The position numbers and the translations under genes are program-made. From Myxococcota bacterium (GTDB lineage Bacteria; Myxococcota_A; UBA9160; PR03): 64,000 nt of DNA. The notes under the pieces are model-generated. The model saw nothing but the letters and a program-made list of their open reading frames with translations. It searched no databases and had not been told where the DNA came from. The first letter of the stretch is position 1. Each line of letters begins with the position of its first letter. Shown here one piece after another: positions 25,462-29,646 of this stretch. Where the stretch lies: the NCBI GenBank assembly GCA_035506135.1, contig DATJPY010000103.1, forward strand, positions 3,448 to 67,447, in the 5' to 3' direction.

Positions 25462-25500
25462 GGGCGCGCGCCCACAAGGGCGCGCCCCCTCTCTCGTTTT
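25462..25500 (+). terminator. Rho-independent-type terminator after porin 1
   Basis: Stem GGGCGCGC (25462-25469) pairs with GCGCGCCC (25480-25487), followed by CCTCTCTCGTTTT. Confidence 0.5.
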
Positions 25501-25519
25501 GTGCGCCAGCACGCGCACA
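25500..25519. promoter_or_regulatory. Inverted repeat TGTGCGC-N6-GCGCACA (candidate enhancer-binding-protein site)
   Basis: Perfect 7-bp arms, about 125 bp upstream of the sigma54 -24 element at 25635. Confidence 0.3.
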
Positions 25520-25634
25520 GCCCCTCTCGACCGCGGGCTGCCGCAGCGGTGGGCAGCCGAGCCTCATGGCACACCGTCGGAGCCGTCTCCGCGGCTCCGC
25601 GGCACGCCAGGCGCGGCATGGAAGCCCCAGTCAT

Positions 25635-25650
25635 TGGCATGGCGATTGCT
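25635..25650 (+). promoter_or_regulatory. sigma54 promoter TGGCAT-GGCGA-TTGCT (porin 2)
   Basis: Near-consensus -24/-12 (TGGCAC-N5-TTGCW), 158 nt upstream of the ATG at 25808. Confidence 0.7.
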
Positions 25651-25807
25651 GCCGATACGCCCGGCGCCGGCTGCCCGGCGGGTCGATTGCAAAAAAGTGT
25701 TCGCAAGGGCTCTCCCGAAGCGCCTTGCGCTCCGTTAAGTTACGGGTCCGCGCGTTGAGGGGACGCGGTTCGAATTTCGCAGGATGATGCGAGAAGGAGG
25801 GGTTGAG

Positions 25808-27280
25808 ATGCGTTCTCGGTGGACGGCCACATTGTTGGCCTTCGCCATGTTGGCCTTCGTTGGGCTCGCGCCGTCGGCCAGGGCGGACGACGACAGCACC
25901 CAGGCCCAGCTCAAGACGATGCAGGATCGCATGCAGTCGATGGAGGACCAGCTCCAGGCTGCGAACAAGCGCGTCGACGAGCAGCAGGATCTGATCCAGC
26001 GCTCGGGTCTCTCGGAGACACGCGGGGCGAGCTCGGGTCTGCCCGGCTTCCTCGGCTCGCTCGACATCAGCGGGTGGGCGGCCGCCAGCTACTTCTACAA
26101 CGTCAACGACCCGAACGACCACCAGAACCCGGACGGCGGCCTCAAGAACACCAACATCGGCTACTCGGGGCAGAACGGCTCGGTGAACGGCGACAACGCG
26201 AATGCACCGGGCTTCTATCCGCTGCACCCGGACCAGAACAGCTTCTCGCTCGACCAGCTCTGGTTCGGGATCGAGCGGAAGATCAGCGAGGAGAACCGCG
26301 CTGGCTTCCGCGCCGACATCCTGTACGGCACGACGGCGGGGCTGCTGCCGAACAGCTCGTTCAACGGCAACCGCGCGAGCTTCGACTCGACGTCGTCGTT
26401 CTACGTGCAGCAGGCCTACATCCAGTACCTCGCGCCGATCGGCAGCGGCATCACCGTGAAGGCCGGCAAGTTCGAGACGCTGCTGGGCGTGGAGACGGCC
26501 GAGACGATCTACAACTGGAACATCACGCGCGGCACGATCTGGACGCTGTTCGAGCCGATCAACCACGTCGGCGTGTCGATCGGCGGACCGATCGGCGACT
26601 CCGGCTTCGACTGGACACTCGCGGGTGTCAACGGCTTCGCTCCGGACTCGCCCGACATCAACGACGGCAAGTCGGTGATGGGCCACCTGGGCTGGAGCAA
26701 CAAGATGTTCACGGTTGCGCTGAACGGCATCTGGGGCCCCGAGAAGTTCGCCAACGACGGGAGCCAGAACGGCGTTGCCAACGCCTACATCAAGTGGAAC
26801 CCGACCGACCGCTTCGGGATGTACCTGAACGGCGACTACGCCTGGCAGCAGGGCACGTCGGCAGCCGCGTGGGGCCTCTCGCTGGCGGGCCGCTATGGGA
26901 TCACGGACAAGACCGGGGTCGCACTGCGGGCCGAGTACGCGCAGGACGTGAGGGGCTTCTTCGGCTTCACGGGCTGCGGCAGCAGCTTCGGCAATCCCGC
27001 GGATCCCGCCAACCCCAACTTCACAGGCGGTCCGAACGCCTGCGGCGCAACGGGGATCCAGACCTACGGCATCACGCTCACGGTCGACCATCAGCTCACC
27101 GACCAGCTGATGATCCGCGGCGAGGGTCGCTACGACTGGATCGGGAAGGACAACGGCAAGCAGGACGAGTTCTTCCAGAACAACCGCTACGACCTGGCGG
27201 GCAGCAAGAGCATGCCGAACAACCAGCTCGTGTTCGGCGTCGAGCTCGTCTACAACTTCAACAAGTTCGGGGCCCAGTAG
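25808..27280 (+). CDS. Outer-membrane beta-barrel porin with N-terminal coiled coil (paralog 2)
   Basis: Internal ATG after GAAGGAGGGG; the track ORF starts at 25784. Collinear with paralog 1, with most residues identical by eye. Differences cluster in two loop segments. Confidence 0.8.
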   Translation: MRSRWTATLLAFAMLAFVGLAPSARADDDSTQAQLKTMQDRMQSMEDQLQAANKRVDEQQDLIQRSGLSETRGASSGLPGFLGSLDISGWAAASYFYNVNDPNDHQNPDGGLKNTNIGYSGQNGSVNGDNANAPGFYPLHPDQNSFSLDQLWFGIERKISEENRAGFRADILYGTTAGLLPNSSFNGNRASFDSTSSFYVQQAYIQYLAPIGSGITVKAGKFETLLGVETAETIYNWNITRGTIWTLFEPINHVGVSIGGPIGDSGFDWTLAGVNGFAPDSPDINDGKSVMGHLGWSNKMFTVALNGIWGPEKFANDGSQNGVANAYIKWNPTDRFGMYLNGDYAWQQGTSAAAWGLSLAGRYGITDKTGVALRAEYAQDVRGFFGFTGCGSSFGNPADPANPNFTGGPNACGATGIQTYGITLTVDHQLTDQLMIRGEGRYDWIGKDNGKQDEFFQNNRYDLAGSKSMPNNQLVFGVELVYNFNKFGAQ

Positions 27281-27310
27281 AGCGCTTCTGGGACCCGGTT
27301 CGAGCGCCTG

Positions 27311-27340
27311 GGGGCGCGGTCCGCGAGGACCGCGCCCCTT
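27311..27340 (+). terminator. Rho-independent terminator after porin 2
   Basis: Perfect 12-bp stem GGGGCGCGGTCC / GGACCGCGCCCC with a GCGA loop, followed by TTCGCATTT. Confidence 0.7.
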
Positions 27341-27379
27341 CGCATTTCGGGGCGCCGCTGCCGCGACCCTGGGCAGGGC

Positions 27380-27396
27380 TGCACAACATTGTCGCA
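27380..27396. promoter_or_regulatory. NtrC-box-like site TGCACAACATTGTCGCA
   Basis: TGC-N11-GCA. The left half TGCAC matches the enteric NtrC consensus TGCACC-N5-GGTGCA. It lies about 70 bp upstream of the glnB sigma54 promoter. Confidence 0.3.
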
Positions 27397-27455
27397 AACA
27401 GCCCCTGTCTGCAGCCGTCGGCGGGCGCCTCCCGCGCCCTGAGCCGCGCCAACCC

Positions 27456-27471
27456 TGGCACGCCCCTTGCT
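27456..27471 (+). promoter_or_regulatory. sigma54 promoter TGGCAC-GCCCC-TTGCT (glnB-glnA)
   Basis: Perfect consensus -24/-12, 177 nt upstream of the glnB ATG. Confidence 0.8.
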
Positions 27472-27647
27472 CCGCCCGCTGTGGGACCACCGGCGGTGTG
27501 CCGGGCCTCGCACGCCGCGAGGACGTGATACCGTTGGCCCGGCCGCAGCCCACCCCGGTGTCGGGGTGGTGCCGAGAGACATCGCGTTCCCCCGAGCCGA
27601 GGACCGCGCCGCGCTAGCCGCGGGGGGGTCCCTGAGAGAGGACGGCC

Positions 27648-27986
27648 ATGCGCAAGGTCGAAGCGATCATCAAGCCCTTCAAGCTCGACGAGGTGAAGGA
27701 GGCGCTGCAGGCGGTGGGCGTGCAGGGCATGACGGTGTCGGAGGTCAAGGGCTTCGGCCGCCAGAAGGGCCACACCGAGCTCTACCGCGGCGCCGAGTAC
27801 GTCGTCGACTTCCTGCCGAAGATCAAGCTCGAGATCGCCTGCAGCGACGACATGGTCGACAAGATCGTGCAGGCGATCGTGCAGGCGGCCAACACCGGGC
27901 GCATCGGCGATGGCAAGATCTTCGTCTACGCGCTGCAGGACGTGATCCGCATCCGGACCGGCGAGAGCGGTCCCGAGGCGGTCTGA
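27648..27986 (+). CDS. glnB: Nitrogen regulatory protein P-II
   Basis: Contains [45 protein letters not shown] (T-loop Tyr) ..[11 protein letters not shown]. Confidence 0.95.
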
Positions 27987-28048
27987 CCCGCGTTTCCCGA
28001 GAACCCCCAACCGCGGCCCGAGGCCCGAGGAAAGGAAAGACGTCCGCA

Positions 28049-29473
28049 ATGTCCCTGAAGAACGGCAAGGAAGTCCTCGACTTCGCCAAGAAGAACAACG
28101 TCGTGATGGTCGACTGCCGCATCATCGACCTCCCTGGTCTCTGGCAGCACTGCTCGCATCCGATCGGCACGCTCCAGGAGTCGACCTTCCAGGACGGCTA
28201 CGGCTTCGACGGCTCGTCGATCCGCGGCTGGAAGGCGATCAACGAGAGCGACATGCTGATGATCCCGGACCCCACGAGCGCCTTCATCGATCCGTTCCTG
28301 GCGCATCCGACGCTGGTCCTGATCTGCGACGTGGTCGACACGCTCACGCGGCAGCCCTACGACCGCGACCCGCGCAACGTGGCGAAGAGAGCCGAGCTCT
28401 ACCTGAAGCAGAGCGGCATCGGCGACACCGCGTACTTCGGTCCGGAGGCCGAGTTCTTCGTGTTCAACAGCGTGCGCTTCGGCTCGGGGCCGAACGCTGG
28501 CTTCTACCGGATCGACTCGAACGAGGCGATCTGGAACACGGACCGCGAGGAGGATGGAGCCAACCTCGGCTACAAGATCCGCCACAAGGAGGGCTACTTC
28601 CCGGTTCCCCCGCACGACACGCAGCAGGATATCCGGACCGAGATGTGCCTCGAGATGCAGAAGATGGGGATCGAGATCGAGACCCAGCACCACGAGGTGG
28701 CGACCGGCGGCCAGGCCGAGATCGACATGGTCTTCGACACGCTGGTGTCGATGGCGGACAAGCTGCTGAAGTACAAGTACGTGGTCAAGAACGTGGCGCA
28801 CCGCCACGGCATGACCGCGACCTTCATGCCCAAGCCCCTGTTCAAGGACAACGGCTCGGGCATGCACACGCACCAGTCGATCTGGAAGGACGGCAAGCCG
28901 CTCTTCGCGGGGAGCGGCTACGCCGGGCTCTCCGACCTGGCGCTCTGGTACATCGGCGGGGTGCTCAAGCACTCGCGCGCGATCGCGGCCTTCAGCAACC
29001 CGACGACCAACTCGTACAAGCGGCTGGTTCCGGGCTACGAGGCCCCGGTGAACCTGGCGTACTCGTCGCGCAACCGATCGGCGGCGTGCCGGCTGCCCAC
29101 CTACTCGCAGAGCCCCAAGGCGAAGCGCGTGGAGGTCCGGTACCCGGACCCGGCCTGCAATCCGTACCTCGCGTTCGCGGCGATGCTGATGGCCGGGATC
29201 GACGGCGTGCTCAACAAGATCCACCCCGGCGAGCCGCTCGACAAGAACATCTACGCCCTCTCGGCGGAGGAGGCAAAGGGTGTTCCCACCATGCCGGGCA
29301 GTCTCGAGGAGGCGATCCGCGAGCTCGAGGCCGATCACGACTTCCTGCTCCAGGGAGGGGTGTTCACCGAGGACCTGCTGGACACCTGGGTCTCCTACAA
29401 GCGGGAGAACGACATCGATCCGGTCCGGCTCCGCCCGCATCCGCACGAGTTCGAGCTGTACTTCGACGTCTGA
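28049..29473 (+). CDS. glnA: Glutamine synthetase, type I
   Basis: ATG at 28049 after GAAAGGAAAG. Contains [50 protein letters not shown] and the adenylylation-loop region NIYAL. Confidence 0.95.
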
Positions 29474-29498
29474 GCCGGACGTCCCAGCACCCCGAGCA

Positions 29499-29527
29499 GC
29501 CCCGTCGGTCCGTGCGACCGGCGGGGC
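29499..29527 (+). terminator. Terminator hairpin after glnA
   Basis: 12-bp stem GCCCCGTCGGTC / GACCGGCGGGGC with one G-U pair and a 5-nt loop, followed by CCTCTCGCTTCC. Confidence 0.55.
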
Positions 29528-29630
29528 CCTCTCGCTTCCAGCCTGCCCAGCCCCTGAGCACGCGCGCCCACCGGCAGCCCAGCGGCGGCGCGATCGGCCT
29601 CGTCTCGCATTGCGTCGGAGCGCCTCGCCT

Positions 29631-29646
29631 CGGCACGTCGATTGCT
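29631..29646 (+). promoter_or_regulatory. sigma54 promoter CGGCAC-GTCGA-TTGCT (WS/DGAT gene)
   Basis: GGCAC-N5-TTGCT, 41 nt upstream of the ATG at 29687, which has a GGAGGAGG SD. Confidence 0.65.

Follow-up and report, generated by a model that had tools for sequence, protein, structure and literature searches.

Sigma-54 promoters with a common upstream palindrome suggest joint nitrogen control of glnB-glnA, a porin and a storage-lipid acyltransferase in an uncultured Myxococcota bacterium

A 64-kb stretch of a metagenome-assembled genome (MAG) of an uncultured Myxococcota bacterium, here called the window, contains the nitrogen-assimilation genes glnB-glnA, preceded by a gene for a porin (porin 2) and followed by one for a wax ester synthase / diacylglycerol acyltransferase (WS/DGAT). 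All three are headed by sigma-54 promoter motifs of the -24/-12 type, and the three promoters have in common an upstream palindrome of 17-19 bp that an earlier note on this DNA had overlooked. We consider it probable that porin 2, glnB-glnA and WS/DGAT, the last with an adjoining CBS-domain gene, are three independent sigma-54 units that answer to a single NtrC-like activator and to a signal of nitrogen scarcity. The earlier note had already placed the porin and WS/DGAT genes in the sigma-54 regulon of glnB-glnA, which is supported by the shared palindrome and by its conservation in relatives. GlnA and WS/DGAT of the window are identical to HTY19223.1 and HTY19224.1 from a Myxococcota MAG. The promoters, with predicted transcription start sites (TSS) and ribosome-binding sites (RBS), and the genes they precede are:

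25635-25650, plus strand: sigma-54 -24/-12 promoter of porin 2, TGGCATGGCGATTGCT; predicted TSS near 25661, leader of about 147 nt
25808-27280, plus strand: porin 2, BBP2/OmpL-like, 490 aa, ATG start; Pfam PF07642, E=7.7e-52; RBS AAGGAGG
27456-27471, plus strand: sigma-54 -24/-12 promoter of glnB-glnA, TGGCACGCCCCTTGCT, perfect consensus; predicted TSS near 27482, leader of about 166 nt
27648-27986, plus strand: glnB, P-II protein, 112 aa; Pfam PF00543
28049-29473, plus strand: glnA, glutamine synthetase of type I, 474 aa; 671 bits with TIGR00653 (cut-off 429)
29631-29646, plus strand: sigma-54 -24/-12 promoter of WS/DGAT(-CBS), CGGCACGTCGATTGCT; predicted TSS near 29657, leader of about 30 nt, RBS GGAGGAGG
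29687-31081, plus strand: WS/DGAT, 464 aa, ATG start; PF03007 and PF06974, TIGR02946
31111-31539, plus strand: CBS-pair gene, 142 aa as called in relatives; PF00571

The motifs were found on the plus strand at 25635, 27456 and 29631, exactly where the earlier note had read them. Each has 0-1 mismatches to the 11 specified bases of TGGCAC-N5-TTGCW, with a spacing of exactly 10 bp from the GG at -24 to the GC at -12; all are intergenic and on the strand of the downstream gene, and the end of the -12 element lies 157 nt (porin 2), 176 nt (glnB) and 40 nt (WS/DGAT) before the ATG. With at most one mismatch allowed, TGGCAC-N5-TTGCW matches 6 times in 64 kb where 0.5 matches are expected, a count that none of 100 dinucleotide shuffles reached; the stricter GGCAY-N5-TTGCW matches the three promoters only (0.23 expected). 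The window contains an NtrC-family activator gene (49900-51330, minus strand), which indicates that the genome uses sigma-54. Gene assignments come from Pfam and NCBIfam profiles. WS/DGAT scores 222.7 bits with PF03007, 95.1 bits with PF06974 and 413.8 bits with TIGR02946 (cut-off 309.95), and its product would make storage lipid; the CBS-pair gene is probably co-transcribed with it. The glnB product scores 180 and 168.6 bits with the NCBIfam P-II models, under their cut-offs of 202 and 181.

The palindrome follows the consensus CTGCCCAG-N3-CTGGGCAG (TGCCCAG-N3-CTGGGCA) with a core of TGCC-N9-GGCA. The candidate upstream activator sites (UAS), with their distances to the -24 elements, are:

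25538-25556, no strand: candidate UAS of porin 2, CTGCCGCAGCGGTGGGCAG (TGCC-N9-GGCA); 96 bp upstream of -24, 12/16 consensus positions
27358-27376, no strand: candidate UAS-1 of glnB-glnA, CTGCCGCGACCCTGGGCAG; 97 bp upstream of -24, 14/16 consensus positions
27379-27397, no strand: candidate UAS-2 of glnB-glnA, TGCACAACATTGTCGCA; 21 bp after UAS-1, fits TGC-N11-GCA
29543-29561, no strand: candidate UAS of WS/DGAT, CTGCCCAGCCCCTGAGCAC; 87 bp upstream of -24, 14/16 consensus positions

The exact core TGCC-N9-GGCA occurs 3 times in 64 kb, twice within the sites of porin 2 and glnB (25539-25555 and 27359-27375), which also share the longer form CTGCCGC-N5-TGGGCAG. When the whole window was scanned, 14/16 consensus positions were reached only at 27358 (glnB) and 29543 (WS/DGAT). 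The WS/DGAT site lies one helical turn closer to its promoter than the other two, and all three distances (87-97 bp) fall in the range of 70-150 bp that is typical of enhancers at sigma-54 promoters.

The same element came out of an unbiased enumeration of every 4-mer palindrome with spacers of 1-13 in regions of 200 bp that precede 40 sigma-54 motifs, 29 of them at WS/DGAT and 11 at nitrogen or porin genes. TGCC-N9-GGCA and CTGC-N11-GCAG ranked at the top, each in 17/40 regions compared with about 1% of random 200-mers, and GCTG-N13-CAGC and GCCC-N7-GGGC were also high; all four are registers of one palindrome. At least 12/16 consensus positions were present in 32 of 41 anchored promoter regions and in 3% of random segments. 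Moreover, when helical phasing was assessed across 38 promoters, the distances from the best site to the -24 element clustered at 54, 64, 76-78, 86-90, 96-101, 109-112 and 121-123 bp, a period of about 10-11 bp, which would suit an activator confined to one face of the helix. The geometry is that of an NtrC box (17 bp with outer TGC...GCA), and the palindromes are putative binding sites of an activator.

Two other enhancer candidates had been proposed in the earlier note, and neither is the main site. The NtrC-box-like TGCACAACATTGTCGCA was confirmed at 27380-27396; it lines up with a second site that relatives conserve and stands as the secondary site UAS-2. The dyad TGTGCGC-N6-GCGCACA (25500-25519) is also present; it is not conserved in L136, the one diverged relative on which its conservation was judged (L-numbers denote compared relative loci), and has no counterpart at the other two promoters. 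We therefore prefer 25538-25556 as the porin 2 site.

Conservation was followed through two main sets of loci: a GlnA-based scan with one genome per species gave 80 loci, the closest of which is 75% identical and the closest four of which belong to Myxococcota or 'Deltaproteobacteria' MAGs, and a metagenome scan with the WS/DGAT protein as query gave 49 loci, 37 of them including upstream DNA. The sigma-54 promoter of glnB-glnA is conserved in seven genomes (L003, L004, L005, L019, L082, L118, L135). An alignment of glnB upstream regions from 7 genomes (alignment A1) has its conserved columns at UAS-1, UAS-2 and the -24/-12 elements, with the UAS-1 columns invariant. UAS-2 aligns with TGCCCAACTTTCTCGCA in L082 and L118 and with the full palindromes TGCCCAGGAGCTGGGCA (L004) and TGCCCAGGCTCTGCGCA (L019), and the 21-bp tandem spacing of the two sites recurs in L004, L005, L019 and L135. 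In L001-L005 and L056 (Binatia), the palindrome lies 76-123 bp upstream of sigma-54 motifs that precede glnB-glnA, a second P-II (glnK-type) gene or amtB-region genes, as exemplified by L001, where it is found at the P-II gene and the amtB region; the background is 39 sites in 1.13 Mb. Altogether, it accompanies canonical targets (glnA, P-II/glnK-type, amtB region) in L001, L002, L003, L004, L005, L019, L056 and L135, and it is also present at the gln loci of two Binatia MAGs. The window itself has no amtB, as the earlier note had stated (no tblastn match).

For WS/DGAT the promoter is even more widely traceable: a sigma-54 motif lies directly upstream of the orthologue in about 35/37 metagenomic loci, down to about 58-60% protein identity, compared with 1.9% of random 133-nt segments from the same loci, and most loci with the motif carry the palindrome too. 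In L083, L084 and L088 the site stands at the identical 87-bp distance upstream of the promoter. The close relative L137 reads glnA-hairpin-CBS (7926-8045 against 29474-31110 of the window) and has neither WS/DGAT nor its promoter; therefore, the promoter belongs to WS/DGAT. Since L130, L134 and the window have both, this constitutes a natural presence/absence polymorphism. The order glnB-glnA-WS/DGAT-CBS-dapB-dapA is kept in close relatives (L081-L084, L118, L130-L134, L136) and the pair WS/DGAT-CBS in L082-L085, L117-L121, L124, L130, L131 and L134; WS/DGAT lies beside glnA but on the opposite strand in L099, L101, L122 and L135, and it adjoins glnA in 0/80 loci of the GlnA-based genome scan. 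Myxococcota or 'Deltaproteobacteria' MAGs are the source of the orthologue clusters at about 65% identity.

The evidence for the porin is good, and it is less uniform than that for glnB and WS/DGAT. A porin is located between a DUF2064 gene and the gln genes in L001, L004, L135, L136 and L137, and it is therefore an old member of the module. GGCAT-type sigma-54 motifs precede it in L001 (CGGCATGCGACTTGCG, palindrome 86 bp upstream), L003 (CGGCATGTGCCTTGCT, palindrome 112 bp upstream), L135 (CGGCATGCACCTTGCT) and L136 (TGGCATGAGGCTTGCT). BBP2 porins were located within 8 kb of glnA in 13/80 loci, including Nitrospirota and Terriglobia, which suggests that the association of this family with nitrogen-assimilation loci spans phyla.

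Taken together, these patterns make it most likely that porin, glnB-glnA and WS/DGAT share one NtrC-like activator, and nitrogen status would be the signal because the site accompanies glnBA, P-II and amtB-region genes in relatives. In the mechanism that we propose, one NtrC-like enhancer-binding protein encoded outside the module would bind the palindromes when fixed nitrogen is scarce and, from about 90 bp (8-9 helical turns) upstream, contact the sigma-54 holoenzyme by DNA looping. This would jointly switch on uptake via an outer-membrane channel, ammonium assimilation with P-II signalling, and the acyltransferase, which might divert surplus acyl-CoA carbon into wax esters or triacylglycerol. 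With less assurance, the comparisons incline us to think that neutral-lipid synthesis is hard-wired to the nitrogen circuit clade-wide by a sigma-54 promoter and a clade-specific NtrC-type enhancer on WS/DGAT. With similar reserve, we lean towards a scope for this wiring that takes in uncultured soil and sediment Myxococcota and includes a nitrogen-regulated BBP2 channel.

Several observations weigh against this interpretation. Neither rpoN, which is absent from the 64-kb window, nor a cognate activator was identified, and the activator encoded in the window appears to use a different site. The enteric NtrC binding consensus is TGCACC-N5-GGTGCA, and the sites described here do not fit it, as the inner bases differ and only the geometry and the outer TGC/GCA are kept. 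The porin 2 site has only 12 of the 16 consensus positions, and the porin upstream site is degenerate in L136 and weak in L004. In L082 and L118 the sigma-54 motif of WS/DGAT is kept with no upstream site of at least 11/16 found, and one subgroup of WS/DGAT orthologues has TGGCACGCGGCTTGAA, that is, TTGAA for TTGCW at -12, which is unusual for sigma-54. Finally, the compared loci are partly related to one another and their counts are not fully independent; despite this kinship, the sequence around the sites has diverged almost completely.

Neutral-lipid accumulation accompanies general starvation in Myxococcota, e.g. the lipid bodies of M. xanthus, so the shared activator might instead sense general starvation or carbon and energy, for instance as an Nla-type developmental or starvation regulator, with glnBA, porin and lipid storage as parts of a starvation programme. 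ntrB/ntrC are linked to the module in no relative examined, and Myxococcota encode very many activators (PMC12316311). On the other hand, it is the classical nitrogen genes (glnB-glnA, P-II glnK-type, amtB region) that have the site in common among relatives, no non-nitrogen gene beyond WS/DGAT and porin was seen with it, and the restriction of 14/16 matches in the window to glnB and WS/DGAT also speaks for nitrogen, which makes a general starvation signal rather unlikely. Less probable still is that different activators serve the three promoters, leaving WS/DGAT and porin independent of glnBA and their upstream likeness an incidental product of GC-rich sequence. The three palindromes do differ in central and some flanking bases, and the low score at porin 2 and the lack of a recognisable WS/DGAT site in L082 and L118 would fit such separate control; yet an assumption-free enumeration singled out one palindrome over a background of 1-3%, the spacings are phased, and the porin 2 and glnB distances are nearly equal (96 and 97 bp). 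That the motifs are chance matches in GC-rich intergenic DNA, with transcription from sigma-70-type promoters alone, we regard as very improbable. A conserved TGnTAnnnT in the glnB leader does suggest additional sigma-70-type transcription, and the motifs are in silico predictions; against chance stand their enrichment over shuffles, GG and GC cores that hold position across orthologous regions with diverged surroundings, and an empty sigma-70 consensus scan of 23000-32000. We thus retain a nitrogen-responsive NtrC-like activator common to the three units as the favoured explanation.

The earlier note had stated that the window lacks ntrBC. This has to be corrected insofar as the gene at 49900-51330 (minus strand) encodes an NtrC-family response-regulator activator with a kinase upstream. 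The activator scores 430 bits against the TIGR01818 NtrC equivalog cut-off of 558.6 and has GAFTDA in place of the usual GAFTGA; the kinase (51407-53464, minus strand) combines a degenerate AAA+/sigma-54-activator-like N-terminal part with HisKA. The region 48450-53464 (minus strand) contains what looks like a second sigma-54 circuit: two perfect GTTCCG-N2-CGGAAC palindromes (49880-49893 and 49811-49824) and a sigma-54-like motif, TGGCACACGGGTTGCG (49707-49692, minus strand), lie between the activator stop and the next gene, a response regulator with an HD (HD_5) domain (ATG at 49655, minus strand) that the activator probably serves. With its own sites and a score under the equivalog cut-off, it is unlikely as the cognate regulator of the gln module. 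Activator genes beside the module were not found in Myxococcota relatives; only L023, L049, L059 and L072, all non-Myxococcota, gave matches. Relatives have a stand-alone Fis-type HTH_8 protein (94-110 aa) encoded divergently from glnB or the P-II (glnK-type) gene: L001 4844-5176, L004 about 6920-7190, L005 about 6935-7135 and L135 5508-5792, all on the minus strand. This gene shares the same palindrome pair, and in L004 and L135 it has its own TGGAAC-N5-TTGC sigma-54-like motif. The protein might assist the nitrogen module as an accessory DNA-binding factor. The small HTH_8 gene is absent from the window, and the open reading frame at 27250-27582 (minus strand), considered as its homologue, has an unrelated translation.

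The term 'island' used in the earlier note does not hold if it is read as horizontally acquired. The guanine-cytosine content does dip across the module (66-68% against about 72%), which we do not take as a sign of horizontal transfer, and the flanking synteny GCV_T-DUF2064-[N module]-dapB-dapA-dapF-argH is kept with the module in place in L001, L004, L135 and L137; this conservation on both flanks rules out an acquired island and describes a conserved chromosomal neighbourhood instead. No mobility genes were seen around the module in the gene annotation of the window. A supposed synteny marker, 'orf31698' (plus strand), was discarded as a shadow of dapB on the minus strand.

Upstream of porin 2 lies a second porin gene:

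23930-25405, plus strand: porin 1, BBP2/OmpL-like, 491 aa, ATG start; Pfam PF07642, E=2.9e-51; RBS AAGGAGG

The two porins, also called with 491 and 490 aa on near-identical contigs, are tandem duplicates; the three long repeat blocks that were found between them are 89-92% identical in DNA sequence. No good sigma-54 motif precedes porin 1, only the weak match AGGCCCACCTGTTGCA (23528-23543). Its upstream region (23508-23929) is richer in AT than its surroundings and contains two copies of a tandem 17-bp direct repeat, CCTCGATCTTCGTGGG, as well as a block, GCACGCAGAATATGCGTAAAGTGCGC, that is largely conserved in the diverged relative L136. BBP2/OmpL-like homologues near glnA were noted in L009, L024, L040, L047, L051, L054 and L074 (Nitrospirota, Terriglobia and other 'delta proteobacterium' MAGs); among these, an early scan showed a sigma-54 motif (TGGCATCCGTCTTGCT) close to the porin only in L009 (Nitrospirae), and a later scan upstream of the estimated start gave none.

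Some further features concern the acyltransferase. The subgroup with TTGAA consists of L098, L100, L102-L108, L111 and L112; TGGCAC at -24 is perfectly conserved in it, and the motif lies only 10-15 nt before the annotated GTG start, a spacing that may reflect very short leaders or mis-called starts. Many WS/DGAT orthologues might be leaderless, and gene callers often choose a Met 12 codons downstream. Upstream of WS/DGAT, L136 is almost identical to the window, but its sequences ahead of porin B and glnB have diverged; this suggests recombination or chimeric assembly. Further, the window holds a lipid/steroid-type beta-oxidation gene cluster at 3210-14189 (ChsH2-like hydratase, thiolase-like proteins, thiolase, SDR) as well as malic enzyme and carboxyltransferase genes at 40999-43879, which are possible suppliers or consumers of acyl-CoA for WS/DGAT.

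Hairpins were found by RNA folding between the genes:

25462-25502, plus strand: GC-rich hairpin followed by CUCUCUCGUUUUG after porin 1; the sole hairpin with a U-run (UUUU)
27310-27339, plus strand: after porin 2, perfect GC hairpin of 13 bp and then UUCGCAUUUCGG, a weak U-tract; kept in L082 and L118
29499-29527, plus strand: 12-bp GC hairpin after glnA, no U-run

Their stems measure 8-13 bp with z about -2, and the one after glnA recurs in L082, L083, L084, L118 and L137, where the sequences of the stem differ. A terminator scan of 23000-32000 returned a single match inside glnA and none at the three hairpins. It is plausible that they are terminators, though not canonical ones; the terminators that the earlier note had placed before each promoter correspond to GC hairpins at all three positions, and they have a U-run only after porin 1.

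The glnB leader contains a candidate second promoter:

27525-27534, plus strand: leader element GTGATACCGT (TGnTAnnnT), candidate extended -10 of sigma-70 type

The predicted sigma-54 start is about 45 nt upstream of this element, which a small conserved hairpin, CCTCGC-ACGC-CGCGAGG, precedes. The element is kept in L082, L118 and L001, with the variants GTGATACGGT in L004 and GTGATAGGGT in L135, and the same leader has TAAGGT in L003 and TAACTT in L002. In L001, where the element occupies the spacer between amtB and glnB, there is no sigma-54 motif of at most one mismatch nearby. By analogy with the two glnA promoters of E. coli, we hypothesize that it is a second, basal or constitutive sigma-70-type promoter of glnB-glnA; the sigma-70 consensus scan had no match here or elsewhere in 23000-32000. 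Structured leaders were considered and dropped, as the porin 2 and glnB leaders fold no better than shuffles (z +1.27 and -0.88), and Rfam at gathering thresholds gave no match in the whole window, neither a riboswitch nor a known leader RNA.

Bacteria commonly store wax esters or triacylglycerol once nitrogen runs out, and the physiology is expected; the proposed direct, conserved wiring and the newly defined enhancer lend themselves readily to testing. To our knowledge, no defined transcriptional link from nitrogen to neutral-lipid storage has been described in Gram-negative lineages. The locus appears to represent a regulon of the Ntr type that has its own enhancer consensus, reaches into storage-lipid synthesis and is kept across an uncultured clade. 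If true, the Ntr regulator itself would execute the step from nitrogen limitation to lipid storage, through a testable wiring, conserved in many uncultured genomes, that joins a single enhancer palindrome and a single sigma-54 promoter to an acyltransferase gene. The palindrome may be what the nitrogen activator of this little-studied clade recognises and might be used for regulon prediction in MAGs, nitrogen acquisition would give BBP2/OmpL-like porins a functional context, and a nitrogen-switchable promoter module could serve lipid-production engineering. No direct precedent emerged when the literature was searched for sigma-54, RpoN or NtrC in combination with wax ester synthase or WS/DGAT, and a paper of 2026 goes no further than the proposal to look for RpoN sites in the vicinity of lipid genes (PMC12908686).

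The closing comparison is with systems in which parts of this arrangement are established. Control of glnA, P-II and amtB by sigma-54 and NtrC is textbook knowledge. The locus resembles the enteric NtrC (NRI)/glnAp2 system of the Ntr regulon in E. coli, Salmonella and Klebsiella in several ways: glnA is served by a -24/-12 promoter, with a 17-bp dyad (outer TGC...GCA) some 100 bp upstream; sites stand in tandem at a spacing of about two helical turns (here 27358 and 27379 at glnB); a second promoter, of sigma-70 type, probably supports basal glnA expression; and in relatives the regulon takes in P-II and amtB-region genes. Unlike in enteric bacteria, the half-site is TGCCCAG instead of TGCACCA, glnB precedes glnA with no ntrBC after it, and the regulon would include a porin and WS/DGAT. 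NlpR of Rhodococcus jostii RHA1 belongs to an actinobacterium, to another protein family and to other DNA sites, and we know of no sigma-54 involvement in its action, whereas here a sigma-54 promoter and an NtrC-type enhancer stand at WS/DGAT. The two systems would be alike in tying nitrogen limitation directly to both nitrogen-metabolism and neutral-lipid genes, by which surplus carbon enters a lipid store when nitrogen is scarce (PMC5641563).

In GnfL/GnfM, the master two-component system of Geobacter sulfurreducens, an NtrC-like activator similarly binds ahead of the RpoN promoters of nitrogen genes, glnB among them, in a deltaproteobacterial-type lineage with the order glnB-glnA (PMC2995071). 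It differs in that the upstream region of the Geobacteraceae locus L031 is AT-rich and without TGCC-N9-GGCA, and that no lipid gene or porin is linked to GnfM in that paper, which gives the GnfM consensus only as a figure (PMC2995071). Likewise, the porin BCAL3473 of Burkholderia cenocepacia is induced by nitrogen depletion, has sigma-54-like -24/-12 elements and a reported dependence on NtrC, and is required if cells are to grow with any of several nitrogen compounds as their only source of nitrogen (PMC10117139). It is a porin of another family and phylum with an atypical -24/-12 spacer, whereas the porin described here is BBP2/OmpL-like, is embedded in the gln locus and has a promoter of canonical spacing.

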